Below are positions 3,831-25,882 of a DNA stretch of 64,000 bases, piece after piece. The DNA lies in NCBI GenBank assembly GCA_016234925.1, contig JACRNI010000024.1, positions 6,555 to 70,554 on the forward strand, written 5' to 3'. The translations under genes were made by a program, and so were the position numbers. Each line of letters begins with the position of its first letter. The first letter of the stretch is position 1. Under the pieces are notes generated by a model. It searched no databases. It was not told where the DNA came from and was given only the letters and a program-made list of their open reading frames with translations. This DNA comes from Deltaproteobacteria bacterium. Lineage in GTDB: Bacteria > Desulfobacterota > GWC2-55-46 > UBA9637 > GWC2-42-11.

Positions 3831-4014
3831 TCCGTAAAATAGCGATTTAAAACCTCGCTATTTTACAAACCTGCGATTTGCCCGCCATACTTCGTTATCG
3901 GCGCATTTTTGCTCCTCACCGTATTGGTGATATACGGCTCGTCGCAAAAATGGCCTCTGCCTCGTCTGGCAGCCAACTTGCAGGTTTCCCCAAAAATCAA
4001 AGTCTATTTTTGGG
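3831..4014 (+). repeat. ~185-nt structured repeat, family A, copy 1
   Basis: Near-identical to 6577..6783 and, in reverse complement, to 12672..12856 and 25698..25882. Bounded by hairpins 'gtaaaatagcga...tcgctattttac' and 'cccaaaaat...atttttggg'. Confidence 0.6.
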
Positions 4015-4080
4015 CTGCCTTATCACCCCTGATAGGACTGTTGAAAATCCTGTATTATTTGAGGTTGGTTGTAAAAAAAA

Positions 4081-4154
4081 TGGCTGGGGGACAAGGATTC
4101 GAACCTCGATAGACAGAGTCAGAGTCTGCCGTCCTGCCGTTAGACGATCCCCCA
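4081..4154 (-). tRNA. tRNA-Gln (anticodon CUG)
   Basis: Manual cloverleaf: acceptor stem TGGGGGA/TCCCCCA; D-arm GTCT/GGAC; anticodon loop CTCTGAC (CUG); T-arm CGAGG-TTCGAAT-CCTTG; encoded CCA. Confidence 0.8.
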
Positions 4155-4236
4155 GTGTATTTTGTAATGTAATGCAAAATAATTTGCCCAGTCAAGGAAA
4201 ATCTAACAGCCCAAAAGTAGATATTGATAAAAACAC

Positions 4237-4266
4237 TTGACCTTAAATTATTAAAAATAGTATAAT
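4237..4266 (+). promoter_or_regulatory. sigma-70-like promoter (TTGACC-18-TATAAT) for the TPR gene
   Basis: -35 TTGACC 4237..4242; -10 TATAAT 4261..4266; RBS GGAGGTG before the ATG at 4300. Confidence 0.4.
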
Positions 4267-4299
4267 TAAACAATAAAATATTATTCGAGGAGGTGTTTT

Positions 4300-4767
4300 A
4301 TGAAAACACTAATAAAAGGCATTTTGGTTTTTGCTATTGTTTCATTAGCATTTATTGGGTTTGCAAATGCAGATGAAAAAATAGCAGGTCTTTCAAATGA
4401 AGCGGCGGAAAAAAAGGCTATAGCGCATCAAACTAAAGGCAATGCCTATGATGATGATGGAAAACTTAATGATGCGATAATTGAATACAAGGAATCTTTA
4501 AAATACAGCCCTGATAATGTTGATACGCTTTTTAATCTCGGCACGGCTTATTTAAAGGCAAACAAACCTCAAGAGGCTGCATCAACCTTTGAAAAGGTAG
4601 TTAAGATTGACCCAAATGATTTTGAGGCATACAACCTGCTGGGTATTGCATACAGGGGCTGCGGAAAATATGATGACGCAAAGAAATCATGGGAAAAATC
4701 ACTTGCAATAAATCCCAATCAAGCAAAGGTAAAACAAATGATGAATGATAAGATGTCTCAAAAATAA
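4300..4767 (+). CDS. secreted TPR-repeat protein
   Basis: Signal peptide 'ILVFAIVSLAFIGFANA'. TPR-like repeats ('GNAYDDDGKLNDAIIEYKESLKYSPDN...'). Confidence 0.75.
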   Translation: MKTLIKGILVFAIVSLAFIGFANADEKIAGLSNEAAEKKAIAHQTKGNAYDDDGKLNDAIIEYKESLKYSPDNVDTLFNLGTAYLKANKPQEAASTFEKVVKIDPNDFEAYNLLGIAYRGCGKYDDAKKSWEKSLAINPNQAKVKQMMNDKMSQK

Positions 4768-4789
4768 TGTAGATATTGATTGTAAAAAT

Positions 4790-4834
4790 CCCCATAGCCT
4801 ATTTTTAGAAACAGACTATGGGGATATTTTTTTG
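4790..4834 (+). terminator. rho-independent terminator
   Basis: Hairpin ccccatag...ctatgggg followed by a T-run, after the stop at 4767. Confidence 0.5.
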
Positions 4835-4873
4835 CAACAAACAAATTCTTTATAAAAAAGGCAGGTAAAATCA

Positions 4874-6043
4874 ATGTTAGATAGTATAAAGCCAGAAAAG
4901 GTTAATTGGAGGCATTATTTCGGCGGATTGTCATTTATAATGATAATTATGCAATTATTAACAGGGTTGTTTCTAATATTTTTTTATGAACCAACCATTG
5001 CTGATGCCTATAAAACAGTTCAGATAATATCTAATGAGATTACTGCAGGCGGTTTAATTAGAAATCTCCACAGATGGATACCTGCGCTTTTATTTATTGC
5101 TGTGCTTGTTCATACGATAAGGTGTTTTTTAAGAAAAGATTTTTCAAACCAGCAGAAAAAGGTTTTATGGCTGACCGGTGTTCTGCTCCTCCTTCCGATA
5201 TTTCTCCTGATAGCCACAGGTCTGATAATGCCATGGGAATGGAAGGGCTATTGGTTTATGGAGATGGTCCCGAATTATTTTGGGACAATACCGATTATTG
5301 GTGATTCTCTGAAATCATTTTTCATGGAGACATATACAATACCGAGATACTATGTCCTGCATATACTTGTGTTTCCAATAATTACATTTGTGCTTGTTGA
5401 TTATCACATACTTGTAAAGTTGAGGAAGCGGGGAATTTTTCATTATCTCTTAAAGCATGCAATAGTTGTACTGCCATTTTTAATACTCTTGCTTTATCTT
5501 TCAACAACAATGCAAATTCCGTCTAACGACCCTATTGATGTGCCTCTGCCTTTGGAAGGGGCAAATATCATTGCGCCCGAGTGGTATTTTTTAATAATTT
5601 TATTGCCGTTTATGTATCTTAAAGATAGTCCATGGATACCTTTTATATCTATCTTTGCGCCGCTTATTGTGCTTTTTGCCACCGCATTCATGCCGTATTA
5701 TTTAAAGGGCAAAGAAAACAATGAGGAAGAATCTTATGAGGATAAACACCATCACAGGGCAACAGGCATAAAACTTTTATGGCATAAGACTATGAGAAAT
5801 ACCGCTGCGAAAAAGATTGCGAACGGTATTATTGTTACTATAATAACAGTTGTTATAGCAGGTCTTATCTATCTTGGAAATTATAATTCTCCAACATTCG
5901 GATGCAATTCATGCCACAATGTATCAAAAGGCGTGAGGATAGGCATCCCTCCTGATTTTTTCAAAGACCGTTCAAAACTTCCGCTTTTGAATGACAATGA
6001 GTGGATGATGAGGCACTGGTATTATCCAAACGAGGTCTGGTAA
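4874..6043 (+). CDS. cytochrome b-like polytopic membrane protein with C-terminal CxxCH (b/c fusion)
   Basis: Cytochrome b/b6-like His-containing helices ('NLHRWIPALLFIAVLVHTIRCF'), about 9 TM segments, and a C-terminal 'CNSCH' heme c site. Confidence 0.6.
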   Translation: MLDSIKPEKVNWRHYFGGLSFIMIIMQLLTGLFLIFFYEPTIADAYKTVQIISNEITAGGLIRNLHRWIPALLFIAVLVHTIRCFLRKDFSNQQKKVLWLTGVLLLLPIFLLIATGLIMPWEWKGYWFMEMVPNYFGTIPIIGDSLKSFFMETYTIPRYYVLHILVFPIITFVLVDYHILVKLRKRGIFHYLLKHAIVVLPFLILLLYLSTTMQIPSNDPIDVPLPLEGANIIAPEWYFLIILLPFMYLKDSPWIPFISIFAPLIVLFATAFMPYYLKGKENNEEESYEDKHHHRATGIKLLWHKTMRNTAAKKIANGIIVTIITVVIAGLIYLGNYNSPTFGCNSCHNVSKGVRIGIPPDFFKDRSKLPLLNDNEWMMRHWYYPNEVW

Positions 6044-6046
6044 TCT

Positions 6047-6421
6047 ATGAAAAGGAATAAGACCATCCTGTATGCAATTATAGTTATTGCAGTCTTTGCA
6101 GGGGTATATCTATTTTTTGCTGGAGATGATAAAAAGGCTGTGCAGAAGGCAGTAGATGCCTATATGGCTGCTGTAAAGAATAGAAATTTTGATGTCGTAT
6201 ATGCGATGAATGCTTCTTCCCAAAAGCGGACACTTTTTATTTTAACAGGCAGTGATGCGAATAAAGATGAACTCCTGAAACAATATTATAACGAGCAGAA
6301 GACAGCATTTGACTCTGTGCAGGCAGCGGTTAATCTCAAGGATTTGTGGGCTGAAAAGGCAGTCTTTGCGCCTGATATGAAATACAGGATATGCGAAAAG
6401 AGAATCTGCCCCTGCTATTGA
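6047..6421 (+). CDS. hypothetical membrane-anchored protein
   Basis: One N-terminal TM helix; no recognisable motifs; translationally coupled to the cytochrome b gene. Confidence 0.4.
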   Translation: MKRNKTILYAIIVIAVFAGVYLFFAGDDKKAVQKAVDAYMAAVKNRNFDVVYAMNASSQKRTLFILTGSDANKDELLKQYYNEQKTAFDSVQAAVNLKDLWAEKAVFAPDMKYRICEKRICPCY

Positions 6422-6576
6422 AGGCAAAAGTGTAAAAAAGGCAATTTATATTGTCAAGATGATACACAGCAAAAACATCGGAAAGACGATAAAGACAATG
6501 ACCGCAGAAATAGGTGACAGATGGTTGTTTAAAGGGATTGCAATAAAAGACGGAAGTATTATCTATTGGTAATGCT

Positions 6577-6783
6577 TCCGTAAAATAGCGATTAAAAACC
6601 TCGCTATTTTACAAACCTGCGATTTGCCCGACCCAAGCTTCGCTTGGGTGCCCCGACTTCGTTATCAGCCATTTTTGCTCCTCACCGTATTGGTGATATA
6701 CGGCTCGTCGCAAAAATGGCCTCTGCCTCGTCTGGCAGGCAACTTGCAGGTTTCCCCAAAAATCAAAGTCTATTTTTGGGATG
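6577..6783 (+). repeat. family A repeat, copy 2 (extra internal hairpin)
   Basis: Same sequence as 3831..4014 with an inserted hairpin 'acccaagcttcgcttgggtg'. Confidence 0.6.
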
Positions 6784-6886
6784 CTTTAATTTTGTTGACA
6801 GATAAATTAAAAAGTTCTAAATTACACAATTCAAAACACTCCCCTCAACGGAATCAGGGGGCAAAACATAAGGAGGATAAAAGATT

Positions 6887-8047
6887 ATGTCATTAAAAGA
6901 TTTTTTGTTTACATCAGAATCTGTTACAGAAGGGCATCCTGACAAGGTTGCAGACCAGATATCAGATTCGGTTTTGGATGCGATACTTGCGGTTGACCCA
7001 AAGAGCAGGGTTGCATGCGAGACCCTTGTTACAACAGGAGTGGCAATTATCGCTGGTGAAATCACAACCAGCGCAAAACTGGATTATCCCCAGATAGTCA
7101 GGAATGCAATAAAAGACATCGGCTACACAGACGCGGCAATGGGTTTTGATGCGCACACATGCGCTGTTATGGTAACACTAGACAGGCAGTCCCCTGACAT
7201 TGCAATGGGCGTTGACACAACAGAAGGCAAGGAGCAGGGCGCAGGCGACCAAGGTTTAATGTTTGGATATGCCTGCAATCACACGCCTGAACTTATGCCA
7301 ATGCCGATACTATACGCGCATAAACTTACAAAGAGACTTGCTGATGCAAGAAAGAACGGGACTTTAAAATTTTTAAGGCCTGACGGAAAATCTCAGGTTA
7401 CAATAAAGTATGTCAATAACAGACCTGTTAAGGTTGACACAATTGTTATTTCAACACAGCACAGCCCGGATGTTGATAATAAAACCTTGAGAGAGGCGGT
7501 TATGGACGAGGTTATAAAAAAGGTTATTCCAGCAGAGTTTATTGATAAAGATACAAAATATCATATAAACCCGACAGGCAGGTTTGTTGTCGGCGGACCT
7601 CAGGGAGACTGCGGTTTGACTGGAAGAAAAATCATTGTTGACACATACGGCGGGCATGGCAGCCACGGCGGCGGAGCATTTTCCGGCAAAGACCCTTCAA
7701 AGGTTGACAGGAGCGCATCCTATATGGGCAGATATATTGCAAAGAATGTTGTTGCAGCAGGGCTTGCAGATGAGTGCGAGGTTCAACTTGCATATGCAAT
7801 AGGTGTTGCAGAGCCGGTATCTGTAATGGTTGATACATTTGGCACGGAAAAGACTGACCCTGAAAAAATCGTAAAGGCTGTGAAAGAAAACTTCAAGATG
7901 AAGCCGGCAGATATTATAAAGACGCTTGATTTATTAAGACCGATATACAGAAAGACTGCTGCATATGGACACTTTGGCAGGAATGAGCCAGAATTTACAT
8001 GGGAAAAAACAGATAAGGCAGAAGCATTGAAAAACAGTGTTAAGTGA
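6887..8047 (+). CDS. metK: S-adenosylmethionine synthetase
   Basis: '[20 protein letters not shown]' and '[17 protein letters not shown]' signatures; 386 aa. Confidence 0.95.
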
Positions 8048-8107
8048 CAGTGTCAGTGTCGGTTTTTTACTGACACTAATCACTGACACCGACACTAAAA
8101 ACAGTGA

Positions 8108-9263
<1,156 letters not shown>

Positions 9264-9434
9264 AATATAAATCAAAAGTCAAATCTCAAAACTCAAAAGC
9301 AAGCAATGTCATTGCGAGGGACAAAGTCCCAAAGCAATCTCAGAATAAATATAGTTATTCCCCCCATCCCCTTTAGCAACAAGGGGGATGGGGGATTATA
9401 ATCTCTCCGCATAGAACATCTTATATTTTTTCCT

Positions 9435-9463
9435 TTGACAGTCATTTTTTAAGGGCTTATACT
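9435..9463 (+). promoter_or_regulatory. sigma-70-like promoter (TTGACA-17-TATACT)
   Basis: In the 374-bp intergenic region upstream of 9638. Confidence 0.35.
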
Positions 9464-9637
9464 CCCTATACAGAAAGATGAAATCTTATTGAAGAAGGCG
9501 AACCAATTCCCGTATCCCATGTCAAAGAAATGGTTTTTGGGTGATTCAGCCAGAGGTGTGATAAACGAAATACTTCGTCTATTATCCTAAAGTAGTTATC
9601 GGCAACCCGTTGACGACAGTGCTAACATCAAACGACA

Positions 9638-11926
9638 GTGATAAAAATGACAAACCAGACAGAAATTAAACAGAAAATTTGGACAACACTTGACAAACTA
9701 AGGGGCCATTTCCCAATTGGCGACAGCAAACTGTTAGAGTTAATCGCAGCGACAAAAGGAACGGAAAAACTTGACAGCATTTTAGGTGATGTAAAAACCA
9801 TTCAACTTTTGACAAGCAGGTATGACGGTTTTGTTCCACCCCTTTATATTTTCAATTTTATTAACGACCTTTCAAAATCTGTAAATCCTAAATCGCACCT
9901 TGACCCTTGGTTGACACCTTCATCACCTTGTATATTCTTTGACTTTGGGACAACAACAGCATATTGCCTAAACCAAACGGCATCAGAAATTATCAAGACA
10001 GTTTTCGCAAACGCCAAAACTGAAATTCATTTAGGTGATGGTTCAAAGCAACTTGACGGCGTAAAAACAAAATTTGATTTTATCACTTCGTTTCCACCTT
10101 TCGGTATGCGGAAAGAACCAATAGAGATAAACGGTTTCAAAACTTCAAACGACTTTGCTTCTACTCTACTAATTCAATCTTCAATGCTTTTGAACGACAA
10201 CGGGAAAGCAGTTTTCCTAATGTCACCTTCTTTTTTGATTGATAAAAAAAATAAAGAAGTAATAAACAAACTGGGTTTGTTTGTTGATGCAGTTTTTGCA
10301 ATTCCTAATGGAGCATTTTTACCGCAGTCAAACATTGCATCAAATCTTGTTGTCATTACCAAGCAACAAAAAGAAAAAACTTTCATCGCAGAAATATCCA
10401 GTGATGAAAAGGCAAACAAGGCAGTCCTTGACAACTACAAAAATCACAGAGCAGGGAAAGTAATTCAGTTAGGTGCTTTAGTTGACATAAAAGAATTCAA
10501 ATCCTTGCAAGCATTAGTATCAGAAAACGAAATGCAAGAATTAGTAAAACGAATTGGCTATTCGCCAATTCATCTTACTGAATTTGCATCTGCTATCAAT
10601 GCAATGAAACAAGACAACAAAGACGAGGTTGAGCATATTTCAAATTCAATTTATCTCCCGAAAGTTGGCAACAGTCCAGTTGTTACCAATCCATCGGAAA
10701 TGAAAATAAAACCGAAGAACTATTTTCAAATTCAACTTGACGAAACAAAAGCAAATTCAATTTATGTAGCCAACTATTTTAATAGCGCAATAGGTAAGAA
10801 ACTAAGAGAGGGTTTAGAAGTTGGCGCGGTAATTCTGCAAATATCAAAATCGCAACTTTCAAATTGTATTTTGCATTTGCCCGATATAAAAACACAATTA
10901 GAGTTGATTGAAATTGATAGCAAGATTGACCAATTCAGTTTCCGACTTGATGAACTGAAAAGGAATCTTTGGAAACAACCGAGGAGTTACAACTCAATTT
11001 CAAAAGAACTGAAGAGCATAAACCAAGAAGAAAAACTTGAGCATTGGATTGACACTTTACCATTTCCAATTTCTTCAATCTTGTGGCGTTACTACGCCAC
11101 AAAAGAAAATTATAAAAAGGTGGAACACCTTTTTCACTTCTTTGAGGCGTTGTCTGAATTTTTCTCAATGATAATGTTAAGTGCATTGGTTCAAGACAAA
11201 GAGTTTTACAAACAAGAGTGCCACAAATGGATAGACACAGACGAAAGATTTAAAGAGTGGTATTTCAGAGCAACATTCGGCAGTTGGAATATTTTGACAT
11301 CACGACTTTCAAAAGCCACAAGAGAATATCTTGCTGACAAGGACAAACAAGAACTTTGCAAATCAATTTACGGTAATCCAAGTGTAGCATTTTTAACTAT
11401 GCTAACATGCAAAGGGATTGTAAATATTCTTCTTTCTATTGCTGACCTTCGCAACAAGTGGAAAGGACACGGAGGAATTACGAGTGAGGAAGAAAATAAA
11501 CAACGAGTAACGACACTTGAACAACAGTTAAACGAGTTGAGAAAATTTATTGCTGACGGCTTTGAAGAAACAAGGATGCTTTCACCGACAACAAGCAGTT
11601 ACGAAGACGGAGTTTTTACATTCAATGCAAAGAAACTTGTTGGAGCAAGGACACCGTTCAATGAGATTTCTATTCAATCACTCATTCCGCTTGACAAGAA
11701 AAAACTTTACTTGGCGCATTCAAGTCAAAACAAACCTGTTGAGTTATTACCATTCATAAAGTTTGTAGAAGTTTCTGATGCAGTTTATTTCTATACAAGT
11801 ATTGAGAGTAAAAATGTTCGTTGGGTTTCATATCACTTTGACAAAAACCCAGAGATAAATCAACCAGCAGACAATGAATTATTCAAAGCGTTTGAATTCT
11901 TAAAAGGCAATGACAGTAAAATTTGA
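9638..11926 (+). CDS. large SAM-methyltransferase-like protein with C-terminal HEPN-like (Rx5H) motif; candidate defence protein
   Basis: N6-MTase-like motif order 'HLDPWLTPSS' ... 'CIFFDFGTTTAY' (degenerate motif I) ... 'FDFITSFPPFG' (motif IV variant) ... 'AVFLMSPSFL'. C-terminal 'SIADLRNKWKGHGG'. Confidence 0.5.
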   Translation: MIKMTNQTEIKQKIWTTLDKLRGHFPIGDSKLLELIAATKGTEKLDSILGDVKTIQLLTSRYDGFVPPLYIFNFINDLSKSVNPKSHLDPWLTPSSPCIFFDFGTTTAYCLNQTASEIIKTVFANAKTEIHLGDGSKQLDGVKTKFDFITSFPPFGMRKEPIEINGFKTSNDFASTLLIQSSMLLNDNGKAVFLMSPSFLIDKKNKEVINKLGLFVDAVFAIPNGAFLPQSNIASNLVVITKQQKEKTFIAEISSDEKANKAVLDNYKNHRAGKVIQLGALVDIKEFKSLQALVSENEMQELVKRIGYSPIHLTEFASAINAMKQDNKDEVEHISNSIYLPKVGNSPVVTNPSEMKIKPKNYFQIQLDETKANSIYVANYFNSAIGKKLREGLEVGAVILQISKSQLSNCILHLPDIKTQLELIEIDSKIDQFSFRLDELKRNLWKQPRSYNSISKELKSINQEEKLEHWIDTLPFPISSILWRYYATKENYKKVEHLFHFFEALSEFFSMIMLSALVQDKEFYKQECHKWIDTDERFKEWYFRATFGSWNILTSRLSKATREYLADKDKQELCKSIYGNPSVAFLTMLTCKGIVNILLSIADLRNKWKGHGGITSEEENKQRVTTLEQQLNELRKFIADGFEETRMLSPTTSSYEDGVFTFNAKKLVGARTPFNEISIQSLIPLDKKKLYLAHSSQNKPVELLPFIKFVEVSDAVYFYTSIESKNVRWVSYHFDKNPEINQPADNELFKAFEFLKGNDSKI

Positions 11927-12138
11927 AACGACAGTCCTTCGTGGTAAACAGTCGGGTGATGCCGATAACATCAGATTAAATGAAATTTTGAAAAGGGAAA
12001 AATGAGGGACAGCGGCCATTTAAAAAGGGATATGCCAGCAACGGACAGATAATATGGCGGAAAAGACTGGCATCAAACCCAATAGGGCTTCTTTTCCGCC
12101 AAGAACGTTAGCGGAAATGCCCGGATAGAAAGACAAGA

Positions 12139-12333
12139 ATGAAGATTCGTGATATTATAAAATTGATAGAACGCGATGGTTGGTATCAAGTTGATACGAG
12201 AGGAAGCCATCGTCAATATAAACACCCTATGAAGTCAGGCAGGGTAACAATTGCCGGTCATCTTGGCGATGATTTGTCGCCGGGAACTCTCAACAGTATT
12301 TTGAAGCAGGCTAAATTGAAGGAGGTAAAATAA
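12139..12333 (+). CDS. hicA: HicA-family toxin (YcfA-like mRNA interferase)
   Basis: 'TRGSHRQYKHPMKSGRVTIAGH...DLSPGTLNSILKQA'. Confidence 0.8.
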   Translation: MKIRDIIKLIERDGWYQVDTRGSHRQYKHPMKSGRVTIAGHLGDDLSPGTLNSILKQAKLKEVK

Positions 12334-12334
12334 A

Positions 12335-12547: not shown

Positions 12548-12671
12548 AATTTCAGTGCGAGCACTTCCCGTTAACACAGCACAAACGAAAAGACCCCAAA
12601 CCTGATAACTTTGTCTGTGCTGAAACCGTTATCTTCTTATTACAAGAGTGAAAAAGGAACAAAGGCTTGTT

Positions 12672-12856
12672 CCCAAAAATAGACTTTGATTTTTGGGGAA
12701 ACCTGCAAGTTGGCTGCCAGACGAGGCAGCGGACTATTTTTACGACGAGCCGTATGTTCACCGATACGGTGAGGAGTAAAAATTGTCCGATAACGAAGTA
12801 TGGCAGCCAAATCGCAGGTTTGTAAAATAGCGAGGTTTTTAATCGCTATTTTACGG
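12672..12856 (-). repeat. family A repeat, copy 3 (inverted)
   Basis: Reverse complement of 3831..4014. Confidence 0.6.
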
Positions 12857-12869
12857 TTGTTCATAATGC

Positions 12870-12899
12870 TTGAATTCAGAGTGCAAATTGGTATATAAT
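12870..12899 (+). promoter_or_regulatory. possible sigma-70 promoter (TTGAAT-18-TATAAT) for the sigma factor gene
   Basis: Motif match only. Confidence 0.3.
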
Positions 12900-12933: not shown

Positions 12934-13779
12934 ATGTCTTTACCAGTATTATCCAATTCCTTACAGTCATATATTGTCCAAATAAACAGGTTTCCTCTGC
13001 TTTCGAAGGACGAGGAATTTGAACTTGCTGTCCGGTTAAAAAAATATAATGACCTTGATGCAGCGCATAAACTTATAACTGCAAATTTAAGGTTTGTTGT
13101 AAAGATTGCAATGGAATACAGGGACTACGGCTGCAGGCTTGCTGACCTTGTTCAGGAAGGCAACATAGGTTTAATGAAGGCTGTCCGAAAGTTTGACCCG
13201 GACAAGGGTTTAAGGCTCATAACATATGCAGTCTGGTGGATAAGGGCGGGCATTCAGGCATTTATTTTGAAGTCATGGAGTCTAGTTAGCCGCAATGCAA
13301 AAGAACTGAAAAGAAGACTGTTTTATAGATTTACTGAAAGCAGAGATAAAATCATAGAAATAGAAAACAACGGCAATAAAAAACTTGAAGCCAATCCCAG
13401 TGATATGGGAATTGATGAGGATATAAGCCGCGATTTTTCTCTGGATAAGCAGATAGGCACAGATGAGACAACTGAGACAACACACCTTGACATGCTTTCT
13501 GATGCTTCGCAAAATCAGGAATATGCGATTCTGGCTTTAGAAGAAAGCAGGATAAATAAATCTCATATTGAATACTCAATTCAGGTTTTAAATGAAAAGG
13601 AAAGATTTGTAATAGAAAACAGGATTACATCAGATAACCCTCTAACCCTTCAGGAAATCGGCGATAAACTCGGCATAACCCGTGAAAGAGTCCGCCAGAT
13701 AGAAGAAACCGCATTAAAGAAGTTGAGGAAAAGACTTTTGCAGAAGTCGCTGCCTGTGATGAATTGCCAATCCGTGTAA
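12934..13779 (+). CDS. rpoH: RNA polymerase sigma-70 family factor, RpoH (sigma-32)-like
   Basis: Region 2 'QEGNIGLMKAVRKFDPDKGLRLITYAVWWIRAGIQAFI'; RpoH-box-like 'LKRRLFYRF'; region 4 HTH. Confidence 0.65.
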   Translation: MSLPVLSNSLQSYIVQINRFPLLSKDEEFELAVRLKKYNDLDAAHKLITANLRFVVKIAMEYRDYGCRLADLVQEGNIGLMKAVRKFDPDKGLRLITYAVWWIRAGIQAFILKSWSLVSRNAKELKRRLFYRFTESRDKIIEIENNGNKKLEANPSDMGIDEDISRDFSLDKQIGTDETTETTHLDMLSDASQNQEYAILALEESRINKSHIEYSIQVLNEKERFVIENRITSDNPLTLQEIGDKLGITRERVRQIEETALKKLRKRLLQKSLPVMNCQSV

Positions 13780-15627: not shown

Positions 15628-15685
15628 TAATGTTAAATAAAGCAGACGGGTGGATTGAATACACCACAAAAAGCGAGATACAAAT

Positions 15686-15790
15686 ATTACACAGATTATA
15701 AGGGCAGATTACACAGATTAAGGCAACACGATTACTTTTTTAAATCTGTGTAATCGTTTTTTTTAAAAATCTGTGTAATCAATTTCTTTA
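15686..15790 (+). repeat. ~100-nt repeat, family G ('gattacac...atctgtgtaatc'), copy 1
   Basis: Related to 17906..18004 and 56247..56336. Confidence 0.55.
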
Positions 15791-17550: not shown

Positions 17551-17888
17551 CAATACAAATACTTGCAATAATAGTCAGCGTAGTGTTATTCTTGGTTATC
17601 ATAGACCTTATCCGCAGAGGCAGGCTTAAAGAAAGATATTCCATTGTCTGGCTTGCGGCATCTGCTGTTATATTTTTATTGTCAATTTGGAGAGGACTTT
17701 TGGAAGGCATATCATTATGGCTCGGTGTTTTTTATCCGCCTTCCTTTTTGTTTCTTATTGCCTTTTTCTTTTTATTGTTGATTGTTTTGCATTTTTCTGT
17801 TGTATTGTCCCGCATATACAATGAAAATAAAAGACTTGCTCAAGAGATCGGTTTATTAAGGACAGAGGTAAAAGAGTTAAAAAAATAA
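17547..17888 (+). CDS. small membrane protein, DUF2304-like partner of GtrB-type GT2
   Basis: Three TM helices, 'LIRRGRLKERYSIVWL'; start overlaps the GT2 stop. Confidence 0.55.
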   Translation: MTIQILAIIVSVVLFLVIIDLIRRGRLKERYSIVWLAASAVIFLLSIWRGLLEGISLWLGVFYPPSFLFLIAFFFLLLIVLHFSVVLSRIYNENKRLAQEIGLLRTEVKELKK

Positions 17889-17905
17889 TTTAATGAGATG
17901 ATAAT

Positions 17906-18004
17906 GATTACACCGATTATAAAGGCAGATTACACGGATTAAAACAAATAGTAGTCTTAAATCTGCGTAATCGTATTTTAGAAATCTGTGTAATCAATTT
18001 CTTT
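17906..18004 (+). repeat. family G repeat, copy 2
   Basis: Near-identical to 56247..56336. Confidence 0.55.
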
Positions 18005-18019
18005 CATAGGAGGCGTTAC

Positions 18020-19204
18020 ATGACAAAAAAACATCTAATTGCTGCAGTTATTATGATTGCAGCCGCATTTGCAGTTTATTCAAATACATTTTATGCCTCG
18101 TTTCACTTTGATGACATCCCTAACATAGTTGAAAATCCAAAGATAAAAAATGTTAATAACATTCCTGAAATGGTGACAGCAGGCTCAAGGGGAATAACAA
18201 TGGCAACATTTGCATTAAATTATTATTTTGGCGGTTTAAATGTAATCGGTTATCATATTGTAAACATTACAATACATGCCATAAACGGGATACTTGTGTA
18301 TTTCATCCTTTATATGACATTTAATCTGCCGTCACTCCGAGAGACCTTTGGTGATAAGTCATACAGACTTGCCTTGTATGCCTCGCTTTTATTTTTAGTC
18401 CACCCTATACAAACGCAGGCTGTAACATACATAGTTCAGAGATTGGAAATCCTTGCGTCGCTATTTTATCTCCTAGCATTGTTTCTATTTATAAAAGGTT
18501 CTATAGCAGAAGGCGTATTAAAAAAGACGATGTTTTTTAGCGCCGTTGTCTTATCATACATACTTGGTATATTCTCAAAGGAGATTGCAGTAACCCTTCC
18601 TGCTGTAATACTTCTCTATGATTATTATTTTATTGCTGATAAGGATTTAAAGGGGGTTTTAAAAAGGCTCCCTGTCTATGCAATATTGTTTGTTATAACA
18701 ATGGCATTTTCATTTAAGGTGCTTGCAAGCCTTGGCGGTTTTGGCGACTTGAGCGAGCAGTCTGCTGGTTTTGGCGTAAAGACAATATCTCCAAAAGAAT
18801 ATCTCTTTACGCAGTTCAATGTAATATGGACATATATAAGACTCCTGTTCCTGCCGATAAACCAGAACCTTGATTACGATTACCCGATTGCAAAAACGCT
18901 TTTTGAATTTCCAACTATTCTGTCATTTATTGGCATAATTGCCCTTATCGCGACTGCTATTGTATTTCACAGTTCAAAAATTAAGGTTTATGGCGCAAGG
19001 CTCATCTCATTTTTTATCCTCTGGTTTTTCATCATACTTTTGCCGACATCGTCTTTTATCCCGATACTTGATGTAATATTTGAACACAGGATTTATCTTG
19101 CCTCTGTTGGTTTTGCGGCAATATTTGCAGTTGTATTTGACAGGGTCTTTGAAATCATAGAGGCAAAATTGTCAAAATCAAAACCTGCAGAACAAAAGGG
19201 TTAA
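18020..19204 (+). CDS. GT-C family (TMTC/PMT-like) polytopic membrane glycosyltransferase domain protein
   Basis: Paralog of the N-termini of 21081 and 23029 ('FHFDDIPNIVENP', 'LVHPIQTQAVTYI', 'NQNLDYDYP'). Lacks the TPR tail. Confidence 0.6.
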   Translation: MTKKHLIAAVIMIAAAFAVYSNTFYASFHFDDIPNIVENPKIKNVNNIPEMVTAGSRGITMATFALNYYFGGLNVIGYHIVNITIHAINGILVYFILYMTFNLPSLRETFGDKSYRLALYASLLFLVHPIQTQAVTYIVQRLEILASLFYLLALFLFIKGSIAEGVLKKTMFFSAVVLSYILGIFSKEIAVTLPAVILLYDYYFIADKDLKGVLKRLPVYAILFVITMAFSFKVLASLGGFGDLSEQSAGFGVKTISPKEYLFTQFNVIWTYIRLLFLPINQNLDYDYPIAKTLFEFPTILSFIGIIALIATAIVFHSSKIKVYGARLISFFILWFFIILLPTSSFIPILDVIFEHRIYLASVGFAAIFAVVFDRVFEIIEAKLSKSKPAEQKG

Positions 19205-19217
19205 TGGGGCATGGGCA

Positions 19218-19859
19218 ATGGGTTATAGGTTTTCTTTATTACCTATTGCCTATTGCCTTTTTTTTATTCTCTTCTTTTTATCCATTCTGACATATTCAAG
19301 AAATCTTATCTGGACAGACCAGTTTACCCTTTGGTCAGATACTCAAAAAAAATCTCCGAACAAAGCAAGACCTTATAATGATATTGGGAATGTCTATCTG
19401 CTTCAGAATAAGTTCGGCGAGGCAATGGAGATGTATCAAAAGGCGATTTCATTAATGCCTGATTTTTATGAGGCGCATTATAATCTTGGCATAATATATT
19501 CAAGATACGGCATGTGGAGCGGCGCAATAAAAGAATTCAGGAATGCGCTTGACAGCGGCGGTGGCGGAGAATATAGAATCCATTATAGATTGGGCGATGC
19601 CTTTGCTGGAAAAGGGATGTTTGAAGACGCAATAAAGGAATATAGTAATGCACTGATGTTAAGACCTGACGATGCAGATGTTTACTATGGTCTTGCCCGT
19701 GTGTATTCATTAAAAATGGAAAAAGATATTGCTATAGATTATCTTGCAAAGGCAATAAAAAATGGGTTTCAAGATTATGAAATTATGTCAACAGATAAAG
19801 GATTAGATAATATAAGAAATGATAAAAGGTATAAGGCTATTGCTGCTGGAAAAAGGTGA
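19218..19859 (+). CDS. TPR-repeat protein with N-terminal TM helix (possible detached C-terminal half of 18020)
   Basis: 'SPNKARPYNDIGNVY' linker motif shared with the TMTC-like fusions. Different frame from 18020. Confidence 0.55.
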   Translation: MGYRFSLLPIAYCLFFILFFLSILTYSRNLIWTDQFTLWSDTQKKSPNKARPYNDIGNVYLLQNKFGEAMEMYQKAISLMPDFYEAHYNLGIIYSRYGMWSGAIKEFRNALDSGGGGEYRIHYRLGDAFAGKGMFEDAIKEYSNALMLRPDDADVYYGLARVYSLKMEKDIAIDYLAKAIKNGFQDYEIMSTDKGLDNIRNDKRYKAIAAGKR

Positions 19860-20084
19860 TGGTGTCTTTTAAAAGATTTAATCTATGGTCAGGGTGTTTT
19901 GTATTTCTTATAACATCCATTACTATCTTTCTTACTGTCAGGGCTTCGGATGAGGACAGGTGGAGCGACTGGGCTTTTGGTGATGCCTAGACCCTAGTGG
20001 GGAGAGGGGTATATAAATTTTTCTCTTGTATTTGTATTAATGACCTGTTAAATAAAGGGAAGATTTTAAATATTTTAGAAGGGG

Positions 20085-20914
20085 ATGTTAGCCATGTTGA
20101 AAAAAAGTTTTGTCAATATCCTGCTTTTTTCATTCCTGCTTGTGGGTCCTGCCTTTACAGAAGCCCAAACTTGTGCCATTGATTACAACAAGCCCACCAT
20201 AGCCGCAGGGTTCCACCACACCGCGGGGCTCAAGGAAGATGGAATGTGGTGGCAGTGGGATATAATTGCTGTGGCGAAATGGATGTTTCGGATTGGACCA
20301 ATATAAAGGCAATAGCATCTGGATGGTACCACACAGTCGGGCTCAAGGAAGATGGGACTGTGGTGGTAGGGGGTTATTTTACTGAAAAGGTCTCGGATTG
20401 GACCAATATAAAGGCAATAGCAGCTGGATGGACGCACATCGTTGGGCTCAAGGAGGATGGAACTGTGGTGGCAGTGGGATATAACCGGGATGGTCAACTG
20501 GATGTCTCAGGTTGGACAAATATCAAGGCAATTGCTGCTGGAGTGTACCACACCTTGGGGCTCAAGGAGGACGGAACTGTGGTGGCAGTGGGATATAATT
20601 ATTTTGGCCAACTGAATGTCTTGGACTGGACCAATATAAGACAACCGAGTTGCATAATAGAATATACCGCGCTTCCAGAATTTATAAGTACACTACCAGG
20701 CATATCCCCGCAAGTTCTTACCAGCCTTGTATCAAAGGCTAAAAGTGCCATAGCATCATTTGAAAACTGGAATACCGGGGCTGCGATAAATAAGTTAAAT
20801 GCCCTGCTTAATGAGATTACTGCTCAGTCCGGGAAGAAGATAGATGCTGATACAGCAGCTACGCTGACAAAATATGTTCAAAACCTTATAATCTATATTC
20901 AGAGTAATAAATAA
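20085..20914 (+). pseudogene. secreted RCC1-like beta-propeller repeat protein, frameshifted
   Basis: Signal peptide; repeats 'GLKEDGTVVAVGYN...WTNIKAIAAG'. A 1-nt deletion ('ggaatgtgg' versus 'ggaactgtgg' in later repeats) splits it into ORFs 20085..20306 and 20246..20914. Confidence 0.6.
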
Positions 20915-21080
20915 GGCAATCCCCTGCCCCCACCTTTGTCCTCCACCACAAAGGGGGAGGACAAAGGTGGGGAGTATTAAAGTAAGAGAAGGTGAGGTTG
21001 ATGGGGTTTTTCGGGGCAAACAAATCCTATTTTTATACATCCATTGCCTTTCTAAAAACTTTTTGCTATATTAAAAAAAG

Positions 21081-23036
21081 GTGGATGCTTTCAAAGATAC
21101 AAAACCTCTTTTTTATACAATCCTTATTATTATAATCCTTTCTATTTTAGGTTTCTTTGCCTATTCAAATATACTCCATGCCCCATTTGTATTTGATGAT
21201 GACCATTATATTGTAAACAATCCAGAAATAAGAGACCTCTCAAATTTCAAAGACACATACGGCACAAGGTATGTTGGTTTTTTAAGTTTTGCAATAAACT
21301 ATTATTTTAATGGGCTGAATACATTTGGTTACCACCTTGTAAATATTGTAATCCATATCTTAAATGCAATACTTGTATATGTTTTGGTGCAAATTACATT
21401 ACAAAGGGTTCAAGGGTTCAAGGGTTCGAGGGTTCAAGAAAATACTAGACCCCTAGACTCCTTGACCCCTAGAATCCTTCCTTTTGCTGTTTCTCTAATA
21501 TTCCTTGTCCATCCTATACAGACTCAGGCAGTTTCATACATAACGCAGAGGTTTGCATCTCTTGCAGCGTTTTTTTATCTTCTGGCAATTGTGTTGTATG
21601 TAAAGGCAAGGGTTCTAGGGTTCGGGGGTTCAAGGGTTCAAGAAAACACTAGACCCCCAGACCCCTTGACCCCTGGAACCCTTTATGTTTTTTCTATTCT
21701 TTCCGCCATCCTTGCCATGAAAACAAAGGAGATCAGTTTTACCCTGCCGATTATAATCATCCTCTATGAGTTTACATTTTTTAGCGCTAAAGACTCACGG
21801 ACATGGACACGGTTTTTATATCTCGCTCCATTTCTTTTAACACTTGCAATCATTCCTTTAAACCTTTTCTTTTATTCAGGCAAAGGTATTGCGCAACATT
21901 TGAGCGAGCAGCAGGTTGTGGATATAAATAGAAATTCACCTGCATATGACCATTTTATTACGCAGTTTAAGGTAACAGTTACATACATAAGGCTATTATT
22001 TTTACCTGTAAACCAAAATTATGATTATGACTATCCTATGTCCCATTCTGTATTTGAAGTTCAAGCCCTTTTATCATTTCTCTTTTTGCTCTCAATAGTT
22101 ATCGCTGCAATTTATCTATATATACGGTCATGGAAGAGAGATAATGGCTACGGTCTTTTAATTTCCTTTGGCATATTGTGGTTTTTCATAACCTTATCAG
22201 TAGAAGCCCGCATAAGAAATGATATAATCTTTGAACACAGGGTATATCTGCCGAGCGCAGGATTTACATTGTCTTTTATAACATCTATCTTTTACGGTTT
22301 TGAATACCTTGAAAGAAGATTAAAGAGGTCTTTGTTTGCATACCTTTTAATATTCATTTTAACCGCAAGCATTTTTCTTTTATTTGCTGCAATAAAGAGA
22401 AATATGGTTTGGAAAAGCGAAGAGGGTATTTATTTAGATACAGTAAACAAATCTCCAAATAAGGCAAGGCCGCATAATTATCTTGCTGGCTTTTATGAAA
22501 AAACAGGCCGTATTGATGAGGCAATAAAAGAGGTTAACATTGCATTGTCTCTGCCTTCCAGCCTTCACTACTTTCATCATTATAATCTCGGTATCGGGTA
22601 CCAGAAAAAGGGTCTTTTAAATGATGCTGTTGATGAATTTTTGTCAGCCATAAAACTTAAAGTTGATTATTTGGATGCATACCGCAGCCTTGGTATAATA
22701 TTTGTTGAATTGGGCAGATTTGAAGATGCTGAGAAAAATATTAAAAAGGCTTTAGAATTGCAGCCAACATCTAATGTGTTGCATAACACCCTCGGCAATA
22801 TCTATCTTATGCAGGGTAAATATAGAGAATCTATAGTTGAATATGAAAAGGCTTTTAGCCTTGATAAGAATAATGTTGAGGCAATATACAATATTGCAAT
22901 GGCATATGAGAATATTGGCAGTAAAGATAAGTCCATAGAATTCTATAAGAAATTTATTGAAATGTCTCATCCTGATTATGAGAATGAGAAAGAACGCGCT
23001 AAAACACGGATAAAGGAATTAACTAAAAATGATTGA
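21081..23036 (+). CDS. TMTC-like GT-C glycosyltransferase fused to TPR repeats (GTG start)
   Basis: N-terminal polytopic domain with 'FVFDDDHYIVNNP'; C-terminal TPRs; two in-frame repeat-derived segments 'GFKGSRVQENTRPLDSLTPRI' and 'GFGGSRVQENTRPPDPLTPG'. Confidence 0.65.
   Translation: MDAFKDTKPLFYTILIIIILSILGFFAYSNILHAPFVFDDDHYIVNNPEIRDLSNFKDTYGTRYVGFLSFAINYYFNGLNTFGYHLVNIVIHILNAILVYVLVQITLQRVQGFKGSRVQENTRPLDSLTPRILPFAVSLIFLVHPIQTQAVSYITQRFASLAAFFYLLAIVLYVKARVLGFGGSRVQENTRPPDPLTPGTLYVFSILSAILAMKTKEISFTLPIIIILYEFTFFSAKDSRTWTRFLYLAPFLLTLAIIPLNLFFYSGKGIAQHLSEQQVVDINRNSPAYDHFITQFKVTVTYIRLLFLPVNQNYDYDYPMSHSVFEVQALLSFLFLLSIVIAAIYLYIRSWKRDNGYGLLISFGILWFFITLSVEARIRNDIIFEHRVYLPSAGFTLSFITSIFYGFEYLERRLKRSLFAYLLIFILTASIFLLFAAIKRNMVWKSEEGIYLDTVNKSPNKARPHNYLAGFYEKTGRIDEAIKEVNIALSLPSSLHYFHHYNLGIGYQKKGLLNDAVDEFLSAIKLKVDYLDAYRSLGIIFVELGRFEDAEKNIKKALELQPTSNVLHNTLGNIYLMQGKYRESIVEYEKAFSLDKNNVEAIYNIAMAYENIGSKDKSIEFYKKFIEMSHPDYENEKERAKTRIKELTKND
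21406..21477 (+). repeat. family C element (tandem GGGTTCAAG units + 'actagaccc...cttgaccc'), inserted in-frame in a CDS
   Basis: Repeated at 21610..21681, 23348..23419, 23552..23623 and 35426..35484. Confidence 0.65.
21610..21681 (+). repeat. family C element, in-frame in CDS
   Basis: See 21406..21477. Confidence 0.65.
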
Positions 23037-25101
23037 AAAAGAGAAAACATCCATAAGAACCTTTATTATTATAGCAGTGATTTTTATTTTAGGGTTTCTT
23101 ATTTATTCAAACACCCTTTACAACCCATTTATATTCGATGACGAAATCTATATTGTTGATAATTATCAAATAAGAGACATTTTAAATTTTACTGATTTTT
23201 CTGGTACACGATATATTGGTTTGTTAAGTTTTGCTATAAATTATTATTTTGGCGGATTAAATACATTTGGCTACCATCTTGTAAATATTGTAATTCATAT
23301 AATAAATGCAATACTTGTCTATTTTTTGGTGCAAATTACATTACAAAGGGTTCAAGGGTTCGAGGGTTCGAGGGTTCAAGAAAATACTAGACCACTAGAC
23401 TCCTTGACCCCTAGAATCCTTCCTTTTGCTGTTTCTCTAATCTTCCTCGTTCATCCTATACAGACTCAGGCAGTTTCATACATAACCCAGAGATTTACAT
23501 CTCTTGCAACGCTTTTTTATATTCTGGCAATTGTGCTGTATGTAAAGGCAAGGGTTCTAGGGTTCGGGGGTTCAAGGGTTCAAGAAAACACTAGACCCCC
23601 AGACCCCTTGACCCATGGAACCCTTTATGTTTTTTCCATTCTTTCCACCATCCTCGCAATGAAGACAAAGGAGATAAGTTTTACACTGCCTTTTATAATT
23701 GTTCTTTATGAGTTTACATTTTTTAATAATTTGGACTCACGACCCACGATCCGCAATTCACAACTCAAAACACGGCTTTTGTATCTAACCCCATACCTTT
23801 TAACACTTATGATTATTCCATGGGAACTTTTTTTGGCAGGCGAAGGTTTTGAGCAATGGTTAAGACAGCAGCAATTGGCAGATATAAGCAATTTGTCAAA
23901 GCATGATTATCTTCTTACCCAGTTTGGTGTGATAGTTACATATATAAGATTGCTTTTTCTGCCAATCAATCAAAATTTTGATTACGATTACCACATAGCC
24001 CATTCTATATTTGAGGTTTCGACTCTTTTATCATTTCTCTTTTTAATTTCAATATTTTCTTTTGCAATTTATCTATATGTATGGTCACGAAAGACAGGTA
24101 ACAGTTACGGTCTTTTAGCCTCCTTTGGCATGCTTTGGTTTTTTATAACCTTATCAGTAGAATCTTCTATAATACCAATAAGGGATGTTATCTTTGAACA
24201 CAGGGTATATCTGCCAAGCATCGGGGCAATTATTGCATTCAATACAGGTTTATTTTATGGACTTGAAAATGTGAAAACAAGATTGTCTATAAAATCATCT
24301 GTAATAATTGCGTTATTTTTATCTATAATTTCTGCTTTTACCATTATATTTTCTATTGCAACTTACAAGAGAAACTTTATATGGGGAGATTTGATGACTA
24401 TGGCATTGGATATGTTAAAAAAATCTCCGAATAAGGCAGATGTGAGAAATGAAGTAGGTATGCACTATTTTAAAAAAGGTCTTCTAGATAAAGCAAAGAG
24501 CGAGATTCAAAAGGCAATTAGCCTTCAGCCCGATTTTTTTATGGCATATAATAACCTTGGTTTAATATATCTAAAAAAAGGACTATTAGAAGACGCGGAA
24601 AGGTTTTTTAAAAAGGCAATTGAGATAAAGCCTGATTATTCTGCGGCACATGAAAATCTTGGCACTGTACTTTTGGAAAATGGCCTGATTGATGAGGCGC
24701 TAAAAGAGTATGAGATTGCAATTATGATGAAGGAGTCTCCCAGATTATATAATAAAATAGGGGTGCTTTATTTAAAACTAGGTAATAGAGATACTGCTAT
24801 AAAGGCGTTCAAAGAGGCGATAAGACTTGAGCCGCAAGGTGTAACTCCATATGCCAACATGGGTTTTGCGTATTTTGATAAAGGTGATTATGACAAGGCA
24901 ATGGAGATGCATGGAAAGGCAATAAAAATAATGCCGAATTTTGCAAATGCGCATTATGGTTTGGCAGAAGTTTATGAGAAAAAAGGGGTGAGAGATAAGG
25001 CAGTAGAGCATTACAAGAAATATATAAAATATGCAGACCCCAAGGAACAGTTTGTTGAAAAGGCAAAGAAGAAGATTACCGAACTGGGGAAAACTGAGTG
25101 A
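23029..25101 (+). CDS. TMTC-like GT-C glycosyltransferase fused to TPR repeats (tandem paralog)
   Basis: Same architecture and the same two in-frame repeat insertions as 21081..23036. Confidence 0.65.
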   Translation: MIEKEKTSIRTFIIIAVIFILGFLIYSNTLYNPFIFDDEIYIVDNYQIRDILNFTDFSGTRYIGLLSFAINYYFGGLNTFGYHLVNIVIHIINAILVYFLVQITLQRVQGFEGSRVQENTRPLDSLTPRILPFAVSLIFLVHPIQTQAVSYITQRFTSLATLFYILAIVLYVKARVLGFGGSRVQENTRPPDPLTHGTLYVFSILSTILAMKTKEISFTLPFIIVLYEFTFFNNLDSRPTIRNSQLKTRLLYLTPYLLTLMIIPWELFLAGEGFEQWLRQQQLADISNLSKHDYLLTQFGVIVTYIRLLFLPINQNFDYDYHIAHSIFEVSTLLSFLFLISIFSFAIYLYVWSRKTGNSYGLLASFGMLWFFITLSVESSIIPIRDVIFEHRVYLPSIGAIIAFNTGLFYGLENVKTRLSIKSSVIIALFLSIISAFTIIFSIATYKRNFIWGDLMTMALDMLKKSPNKADVRNEVGMHYFKKGLLDKAKSEIQKAISLQPDFFMAYNNLGLIYLKKGLLEDAERFFKKAIEIKPDYSAAHENLGTVLLENGLIDEALKEYEIAIMMKESPRLYNKIGVLYLKLGNRDTAIKAFKEAIRLEPQGVTPYANMGFAYFDKGDYDKAMEMHGKAIKIMPNFANAHYGLAEVYEKKGVRDKAVEHYKKYIKYADPKEQFVEKAKKKITELGKTE
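23348..23419 (+). repeat. family C element, in-frame in CDS
   Basis: See 21406..21477. Confidence 0.65.
23552..23623 (+). repeat. family C element, in-frame in CDS
   Basis: See 21406..21477. Confidence 0.65.
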
Positions 25102-25697
25102 TAAACAAGTCTTCATTTGTAATATATTACTTAATCATTCTTTTATTATCTGTATCCGCTTTTTTGAGAAATTCTATCTGGCATAGTGAGATGGGTTTAT
25201 GGCAGGATGTTATATCAAAATCTCCCAATAACGCATTAGCATTAAATAATCTTTGTGTGTCCCTTTATAAAGAAACAAGATATGATGATGCCTTGAATAC
25301 TTGTTTAAAATCACTTAGACTTGAGCCAGAGGATTGGTCAGTGCATTTAAACCTCTGGCAGGTTTATAAGGCAAAGGGCATGTTGAATGAGGCTCAAGAA
25401 GAATCAAAATTGGGGTTAAAACTTCAAATCGGCAAGCCAGAGGCATACAGCACATTAGGTTATTATCTGATGGAAAAAGGATTGATTGATGAGGCAATCA
25501 GGATATTTAAAATAGCATTAGAGAAAAAGCCCGACCTCGCAGACAGCCATTATGGGCTTGCTGTTAATCTTGAAAAAAAAGGTGATAAACATTCTGCGCT
25601 GATGCGCTATAAAGAATATTTGAGATTTTTAAATCCGGAAGACCCCAGATTTAAAGAGGTTGAAAAAAGGGTTAAAGATATAGAAAAAGGCGAATGA
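25098..25697 (+). CDS. TPR-repeat protein with N-terminal TM anchor
   Basis: 'SPNNALALNNLCVSLY'; TPR repeats. Confidence 0.6.
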   Translation: MINKSSFVIYYLIILLLSVSAFLRNSIWHSEMGLWQDVISKSPNNALALNNLCVSLYKETRYDDALNTCLKSLRLEPEDWSVHLNLWQVYKAKGMLNEAQEESKLGLKLQIGKPEAYSTLGYYLMEKGLIDEAIRIFKIALEKKPDLADSHYGLAVNLEKKGDKHSALMRYKEYLRFLNPEDPRFKEVEKRVKDIEKGE

Positions 25698-25882
25698 CCC
25701 AAAAATAGACATTGATTTTTGGGGAAACCTGCAAGTTGGCTGCCAGACGAGGCAGCGGACAATTTTTGAGACGAGCCGTATGCTCACCGATACGGTGAGG
25801 AACAAAAATTGGTCGATAACGAAGTATGGCAGCCAAATCGCAGGTTTGTAAAATAGCGAGGTTTTTAATCGCTATTTTACAA
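25698..25882 (-). repeat. family A repeat, copy 4 (inverted)
   Basis: Reverse complement of 3831..4014. Confidence 0.6.

Follow-up and report, generated by a model that had tools for sequence, protein, structure and literature searches.

The stretch of DNA analysed here (hereafter the window) comprises 64,000 nucleotides (nt) of contig JACRNI010000024.1, from a Deltaproteobacteria bacterium assembly (GCA_016234925.1), and contains exactly four copies of one repeated element, as recovered by a profile search. Copy 1 lies between a multihaem cytochrome c gene and tRNA-Gln (4081-4154, minus strand), copy 2 between a short open reading frame (ORF) and an S-adenosylmethionine synthetase gene, copy 3 upstream of a sigma-70-family gene, and copy 4 between a TPR gene and a chorismate-lyase-like gene (Table 1). 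The copies are 183-203 nt long and more than 90% alike in alignment, and long sub-patterns of the element match four times each in the window and not once in 100 dinucleotide shuffles. As set out below, the family is very probably a new MITE (miniature inverted-repeat transposable element), transposon-derived and ordinary in kind. Taken as a whole, it is likely a non-coding MITE of about 185 base pairs (bp), mobilised in trans by a putative DDE-type transposase and targeted 8 bp upstream of the -35 box of promoters.

An earlier reading of the same DNA, made from its letters and ORFs (the sequence-only reading), had described four copies more than 90% identical, in both orientations and all intergenic; alignment, profile search and gene context bear this out. 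Its limits for copies 3 and 4 were exact, while those for copies 1 and 2 are corrected in Table 1, and the tRNA-Gln that it placed 67 nt from one copy does adjoin copy 1, at 66 nt. It had also doubted an ORF running through the element, and rightly so: the ORFs at 3878-4240 and 6624-6896 are spurious, because indels of 1-2 nt and modules of arbitrary length differ between copies. As these would disrupt any reading frame, the element has no coding capacity. The extra hairpin noted in copy 2 is present as a module of 21 nt, but copies from other genomes carry the same module, and it is therefore a subfamily marker and not a unique insertion.

Spread, ends and target duplications

One genome per species was scanned with a 22-mer from the element, giving 81 stretches with an exact match, all of which come from seven related groundwater "Deltaproteobacteria bacterium" metagenome-assembled genome (MAG) species. 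A copy-number search beyond the window had been suggested by the sequence-only reading, and it reveals dozens of dispersed copies in at least these seven species. From the window and the seven MAGs, 75 copies with both ends were extracted, and the 70 with usable flanks are the base of all flank counts given below; L-numbers (L003, L090 etc.) denote the loci or contigs fetched from the MAG genomes. The sampled loci include 4-18 complete copies per genome, and the extracted copies outside the window range from 95 to 349 nt. Comparison of their flanks shows these to be mutually unrelated, so the copies occupy dispersed contexts. Some insertions are shared between species (L008/L053 and L014/L020), and cases of presence and absence also occur, as a copy in L008 is missing in L053, and window copies 1 and 2 are missing in L082. 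Viral contigs yielded no copies in a search in which one of the two patterns was mis-specified and able to match only GATTGAAAC variants, and a literature string search with the end sequences returned unrelated primers only.

The element starts with CCGTAAAATAG and ends with CTATTTTTGGG, short imperfect inverted repeats that are kept across the 70 copies. When CCGTAAAATAG is compared to the reverse complement of the 3' end, CCCAAAAATAG, 9 of 11 positions match, and 12 of 19 match further in. An exact direct duplication abuts the CC...GG(G) termini in 41 of 70 copies (5 bp in 25, 6 bp in 15 and 7 bp in one), and a near-match duplication is found in a further 14; the 5-mers at the junctions have at most one difference in 39 of 70 copies and are identical in 25. 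As a control, one flank was slid past the other, which gave 25 and 16 exact 5-mer matches at shifts 0 and 1, respectively, and no more than two at the other shifts tested. The duplicated sequences are AT-rich, vary between copies and lack a consensus. All four window copies are flanked by such a duplication, so the earlier statement that the element has neither terminal inverted repeats nor target duplications does not hold. It is based on the presence of both, terminal inverted repeats and target duplications of 5-7 bp, that we assign the element to the MITEs.

Hairpins at both ends and strong single-strand folding, together with the terminal repeats and target duplications that the sequence-only reading had not seen, could also indicate a REP/BIME/REPIN-like or IS200/IS605-derived element, moved as single-stranded DNA by an HUH (Y1) transposase. 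HUH/Y1 transposition (IS200/IS605, RAYTs) produces no target duplication and inserts beside a fixed tetra- or pentanucleotide, whereas the duplications here, mostly of 5-6 bp and exact in the 41 copies counted above, are of variable sequence, and no flanking tetranucleotide is conserved. The flank logos also exclude a conserved target motif that would include the duplications. Variable-sequence duplications point instead to staggered-cut, DDE-type transposition and leave single-strand elements of the HUH type with almost no likelihood. IS200/IS605, REP-like, bridge-RNA and omega-RNA-like readings, all prompted by the hairpin ends, were dropped on the measured target duplications.

Position relative to promoters

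In logos of the flanks, CAA is conserved at 14-16 nt on the left side of the element, which corresponds to a TTG reading outward. Among the 70 copies, an outward TTG at 13 or 14 nt is present at the left end in 28 and at the right end in 18, belonging to 45 elements, one of which has both, against a background of about 1.5 per other offset. The aligned flanks give TTGACA-N15-TG-N-TAnAAT, an extended sigma-70-type promoter, and in 31 of the 46 promoter flanks a co-oriented ORF starts within 170 nt. An independent promoter scan recovers the sites beside copies 2 and 3. The element thereby comes to lie some 45-50 bp upstream of the point where transcription starts. Because the duplication stands between the element and the -35 box, the promoter is part of the target DNA and is not borne by the element. 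We rejected two other assignments of the conserved bases, one as an inward promoter made of the upstream TGTCAA motif and the TAAAAT of the element, and one as an extracytoplasmic function (ECF)-type -35/-10 pair, as these bases are the opposite-strand TTG, to which a separate TG-N-TAnAAT belongs at a greater distance from the element.

How far the TTG lies from the element depends strictly on the length of the duplication. It is 13 nt with a 5-bp duplication (20 of 20 copies), 14 nt with a 6-bp duplication (10 of 10) and 15 nt in the one copy with a 7-bp duplication. The spacing that does not change is the one from the promoter-proximal edge of the duplication to the TTG, which is 8 nt, while the other cut varies by one base. 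Window copies 2, 3 and 4 conform to this. Beside copy 2, the -35 box begins 14 nt beyond the right end and thus 8 nt past the 6-bp duplication; beside copy 3, it begins 13 nt beyond the 5' (left) end and thus 8 nt past the 5-bp duplication; for copy 4, the 5' (left) end is likewise 13 nt from the -35 start. As the distance to the TTG tracks the length of the duplication, it indicates a molecular ruler acting at insertion and not selection after it.

Nevertheless, insertion might be near-random, with the association to promoters arising by later selection, either because short intergenic regions tolerate a copy only where it lies just upstream of a promoter or because the element end confers an UP-like or insulator benefit at a set spacing. 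In favour of this, the regions between genes are short, copy 4 directly adjoins a stop codon, and the T-tract CTATTTTT, read outward, would fall near -58 to -52 of the adjoining promoter, close to the position of a distal UP element, as estimated from the sequence. However, mere tolerance predicts a broad distribution, with a lower bound and a tail, and we see a spike at 13-14 nt; selection for a useful spacing predicts that the distance to the element end should be constant and the cut position variable, which is the opposite of the pattern described above. Moreover, an identity of more than 90% between copies marks them as recent and leaves little time for sorting. We therefore consider later selection improbable, and it is likely that the promoter association reflects target choice.

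Several observations weigh against a MITE that chooses promoters. No TTG at 13 or 14 nt is found in 25 of 70 copies, including window copy 1; about 8 of these 25 have a near-consensus -35 box at 12-15 nt. A base-precise empty site at near-identical sequence was not recovered, the orthologous intergenic DNA being too diverged, and exact-protein look-ups of four window genes gave no record for sister strains. A metagenome scan with the cytochrome b gene that lies between copies 1 and 2 found relatives with no more than 86% identity, a divergence too great for clean empty sites. Every genome used is a metagenome assembly, and transposition is read from sequence only. In about 0.9 Mb of fetched DNA, a search for end pairs with a duplication, separated by at most 6 kb, found no transposase gene bounded by the same ends, nor did repeated segments of at least 500 bp in that DNA include an autonomous partner, and it is for this reason that we infer the family and chemistry of the transposase. 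Finally, the compensatory base changes described below suggest that some pressure, or a templated repair process, keeps the central palindrome, which would also fit a role as RNA or as single-stranded DNA.

We found no base-precise, fixed distance upstream of -35 hexamers for any bacterial transposon or MITE in the searchable literature. The section on insertion sites in a 2024 review of prokaryotic MITEs gives general preferences only, for intergenic DNA or 3' untranslated regions. A base-precise preference for DNA 8 bp upstream of -35 boxes is apparently undescribed.

The promoter flanks also bear on the start of translation. In 12 of 46, 47-53 nt separate the element end from the first in-frame ATG, which thus follows the -10 box by only about 7-10 nt; leaderless mRNAs would accordingly seem to be common in this lineage. 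Flanks with such short leaders include L075, L003, L021, L030, L038, L046, L047, L060, L063, L067 and L076.

With respect to neighbouring genes, copy 4 sits exactly at the TGA stop of the TPR gene at 25098-25697; the duplicated AATGA provides the TGA, and the frame ends at the boundary of the element. Some copies are close to tRNA genes. The copy at L016:984-1300 is 14 nt from the 3' end of a tRNA (1315-1387, minus strand), compared to 66 nt for window copy 1, and in L042 a copy lies just upstream of a promoter that is followed by a tRNA. Promoter-rich or short intergenic DNA may be the simple cause of this proximity.

Table 1. Positions in the window of the four copies of the element (very probably a MITE), their target-site duplications and the adjoining promoters
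Feature	Position	Strand	Details
MITE copy 1	3832..4014	+	183 nt; 5' hairpin 3834-3866, central imperfect rod 3867-3987, 3' hairpin 3989-4014
Target-site duplication of copy 1	left 3826..3831, right 4015..4020		CTGCCT
MITE copy 2	6578..6780	+	203 nt; optional 21-nt hairpin module 6631-6651 (ACCCAAGC-TTC-GCTTGGGT)
Target-site duplication of copy 2	left 6572..6577, right 6781..6786		ATGCTT
Promoter of S-adenosylmethionine synthetase gene (6887-8047)	6795..6823	+	sigma-70-type, TTGACA-N17-TAAATT
MITE copy 3	12672..12856	-	185 nt
Target-site duplication of copy 3	12667..12671 and 12857..12861		TTGTT (+ strand)
Promoter of sigma-70-family gene (12934-13779)	12870..12899	+	TTGAAT-N18-TATAAT
MITE copy 4	25698..25882	-	185 nt; starts TT where other copies start CC
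Target-site duplication of copy 4	25693..25697 and 25883..25887		AATGA (+ strand)
Promoter-like site upstream of chorismate-lyase-like gene (25946-26542)	25896..25924	+	TTGACC-N17-ATATTT

Proposed mechanism and comparison to known systems

In the mechanism that we propose, the transposase, or a promoter-bound partner such as RNA polymerase/sigma-70, would recognise TTGACA. Strand transfer on the promoter-proximal side would then be set at a fixed distance from it, and the distal cut would vary by one base. A TTGA(T/A), as read from the sequence, is located 14 bp inside the tip at both ends of the element, and one and the same DNA-binding domain may therefore read the ends and the target. Alternatively, the transposase could dock on promoter-bound RNA polymerase/sigma-70. 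We offer, as a tentative but serious possibility, a promoter-hunting system in which the transposase is placed by the -35 hexamer, either via a helix-turn-helix like that of sigma-70 region 4, which would also read the TTGA of the ends, or via docking on RNA polymerase/sigma-70. The element itself is most likely selfish, and the site just upstream of promoters a safe haven where neither genes nor core promoters are hit.

If this proposal is correct, the element would be an example of a new class of bacterial target-site selector, and it would explain by what means a selfish element reaches a safe haven when the genome is compact. Many housekeeping promoters would have had their upstream DNA rewired at once, and the system would lend itself to use as a tool that places DNA at about -45 to -50 of promoters. 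The copies double as promoter annotation for an uncultivated lineage, marking -35 boxes and exposing many apparently leaderless genes. With the element identified as a MITE, a known kind of element takes the place of a speculative "novel structured RNA", and only its target choice is out of the ordinary.

The element resembles Correia/NEMIS of Neisseria, ERIC/IRU of enterobacteria, RUP of S. pneumoniae and bcr1 of the Bacillus cereus group in that it is about 100-200 bp long, non-coding and multicopy. As in Correia, ERIC, RUP and bcr1, copies are mostly intergenic and have inverted ends, target duplications, long hairpins and indel subfamilies. In contrast to these families, with which it has no sequence similarity in the searches made, each terminal repeat is contained in its own terminal hairpin, and insertion keeps a constant distance of 8 bp to a -35 hexamer. 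In Correia and RUP the duplicated target is TA, whereas the element here duplicates 5-6 bp of variable sequence. Tn3-derived miniature elements (TIMEs) have terminal repeats of about 38 bp starting with GGGG and a 5-bp target duplication. The length of the duplication fits, but the ends here are 5'-CC...GG-3' with an inverted repeat of only about 11 bp, so the element is not a TIME.

The CC...GG ends recall the IS1380 family (e.g. ISEcp1), whose ends begin with 5'-CC and whose DDE transposase makes target duplications of 4-5 bp; we treat this resemblance only as a lead to a possible parent family. By comparison to that family, 6-bp duplications are frequent in the element here, and to our knowledge no promoter-distance targeting has been described for IS1380 elements. 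A mobile element that reads the transcription machinery is known from yeast, where the retrotransposon Ty3 integrates at the start sites of RNA polymerase III, its integrase being tethered by TFIIIB. Ty3 and the element described here have in common the reading of transcription machinery or a promoter, insertion at a fixed distance and a safe haven. However, Ty3 is a eukaryotic long terminal repeat retroelement and is unrelated in sequence, chemistry and host.

The closest precedent for hunting at a fixed distance is provided by ISAjo2 and the IS1202-family "dif-site hunters" (Harmer, Pong and Hall 2023, PMC10132070), which generate 5-bp duplications and insert 5 bp from the XerC side of dif/pdif; these authors propose that the IS1202-family transposase interacts with a bound protein. 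The likeness is one of behaviour only, consisting of a duplication of about 5 bp and a fixed distance to a recognised site. IS1202-family elements are autonomous insertion sequences of 1.5 kb with TGT...ACA ends and terminal repeats of 24-26 bp, which insert in one orientation at Xer sites (PMC10132070). In contrast, the element here is a non-autonomous element of 185 bp that has CC...GG ends, inserts in either orientation and targets a -35 hexamer, and it is thus not a member of that family.

Fold, modular structure and other repeats

Each copy is predicted to fold into a 5' hairpin of 12 bp, a central imperfect rod of about 120 nt and a 3' hairpin of 9 bp, with folding z-scores of -7.7 to -12.9 for the window copies. 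Both hairpins had been proposed in the sequence-only reading, as had a long-range closing helix (AAACCTGCGA/TTGCAGGTTT) and an apical CCGTAT/ATACGG stem with a variable loop, and all of them are predicted by folding. The terminal repeats each pair with an inverted copy of themselves a few bases inward, and CCGTAAAATAGCGA...TCGCTATTTTAC and CCCAAAAAT...ATTTTTGGG are the terminal hairpins that result. A long imperfect palindrome makes up the centre, whose build is highly modular, with optional hairpins that replace or extend the apical loop, both arms and the closing helix. In the large M4 subfamily, an unrelated hairpin takes the place of AAACCTGC, the 5' strand of the closing helix, while GCAGGTTT is kept.

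Stable folds of this kind had led to the suggestion of a multicopy small RNA (sRNA) or a novel non-autonomous element. The latter is retained here, in the more ordinary form of a MITE; the former, in which a multicopy structured sRNA gene, or else a cis-acting RNA motif, would function through its conserved fold, we regard as very unlikely. In addition to the strength of the folds, an RNA would account for the observation that the optional modules are all hairpins, positioned to extend the rod and not to break it, and the promoter scan gives one weak internal promoter-like match (TTTACA-N18-CATACT). However, in copy 1 the more stable fold is that of the antisense strand (-84.1 versus -68.5 kcal/mol for the sense strand), as expected of palindromic DNA. 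Target duplications and terminal repeats show that the element has spread as DNA, the adjoining promoters fire outward with either end facing the promoter (28 versus 18), and no intrinsic terminator or T-run follows the 3' hairpin in the window copies. A known RNA family, for which the sequence-only reading had allowed, does not match the element: when the window and the long variants were searched against Rfam, only tRNAs reached the gathering score, and at E of 10 or less there were noise matches only, of at most 16 bits.

Structural covariation was likewise expected of an RNA. Among 29 distinct canonical copies, 3 of 61 predicted pairs show fully compensatory changes (CG/GC, AU/CG and GC/AU), each of which marks a subfamily and is probably a single subfamily-defining event. 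The other 58 pairs show no both-sided change, and most are invariant. Thus, a few pairs do covary, but both strands fold strongly, and the M4 subfamily loses one strand of the closing helix and retains the other. Based on the lack of an Rfam match, the antisense folding, the outward promoters at either end, covariation in only 3 of 61 pairs and the loss of the helix in M4, the sRNA reading is unsupported, and the evidence for a strand-specific structured RNA is weak.

Modules M1-M5, M7 and M9 were found solely inside family copies in about 0.8 Mb of DNA; only CCCCGA...TCGGGG also occurs free. A palindrome of 28-30 nt, CCCTTGACA-loop-TGTCAAGGG, which itself contains TTGACA, is inserted at two different places in family copies (L069, L070, L001, L077, L068, L016, L027 and L080) and was not found outside the family in the same 0.8 Mb. 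Each of its insertions has a 4-bp duplication, which is CTTG, sometimes twice in tandem, or, in L027, TCCA. The restriction of most modules to the family speaks against the possibility that the optional hairpins are independent nested mini-transposons, although this one module, with its 4-bp duplications, may be one.

Solo hairpins of 26-28 nt flanked by duplications also exist. L083:4449-4632 and L088:2090-2273 each contain a full 184-nt copy, whereas the approximately 98% identical L090 contains at 2055-2085 only the 26-nt 3' hairpin and GG; copies are thus polymorphic between close strains. The solo hairpin in L090 is the product of a deletion between directly repeated copies of the terminal repeat, and solo hairpins that start with CCGTAAAA fused to the loop of the 3' hairpin fit the mirror-image deletion. 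The idea that solo hairpins of 26-27 nt are the smallest mobile units was downgraded, as the comparison of L090 to L083 and L088 shows their origin by deletion.

Copies may, in addition, have been co-opted by the host as barriers to read-through out of the upstream gene, protein-binding sites or UP-like T-tracts, which is compatible with a MITE targeted to promoters. The copies lie near -50 of housekeeping promoters (those of the S-adenosylmethionine synthetase, sigma factor and chorismate-lyase-like genes), some insertions are common to two species (the L008/L053 and L014/L020 pairs), and the compensatory changes preserve the palindrome. However, there is no requirement for orientation, copies are lost or cut to solo hairpins between near-identical strains, and related species lack copies. 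As far as can be judged from these sequences, co-option is rather unlikely.

We also identified other repeats in the same DNA. A second MITE-like family of about 190 nt has the same build, with terminal hairpins CCCAAAAAATGCAGTTGCATTTTTTGG and CCCGAAAAATAAAAACCAAATGCATTTTTCGGG, and is present at 1065-1254 (plus strand) of the window. It is represented by at least eight copies in the fetched loci, found in L003:3399-3589, L004:5042-5232, L040, L012, L019, L046 and L041. Its flanks are TTAA-like (e.g. TTAA|CCC...CGGG|TTAA), and it therefore probably uses a different transposase.

Two further repeats are built of short units. Arrays of an 8-nt unit (AAGGGTTC x4), followed by the inverted counterpart (TAGACCCC/TTGACCCC), occur twice each at 21396-21691 and 23338-23633 of the window. 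Both places fall within paralogous ORFs (21081-23036 and 23029-25101, the latter with TPR domains), which, as apparent coding sequence, are an odd location for palindromic arrays. A dispersed palindromic element made of GATTACACAGAT repeats and flanked by TTGTTGAAAAA..TTTTTCAACAA hairpins is located at 15683-15727, 17904-17948 and 56245-56289; it is also found at L008:~6100-6260, and in L012 it splits the 3' hairpin of a copy of the main family. Small GC-rich palindromic repeat families, GGTAGCCGCAGGCTTTA...TAAAGCCTGCGGCTACC and GTAGGGGTTTGATTTATCAAACCC, are present in the window at 31692-31736, 41066-41110, 42499-42557 and 55772-55830, and at 38618-38662 and 52767-52811. The genome is thus unusually rich in short dispersed palindromes.

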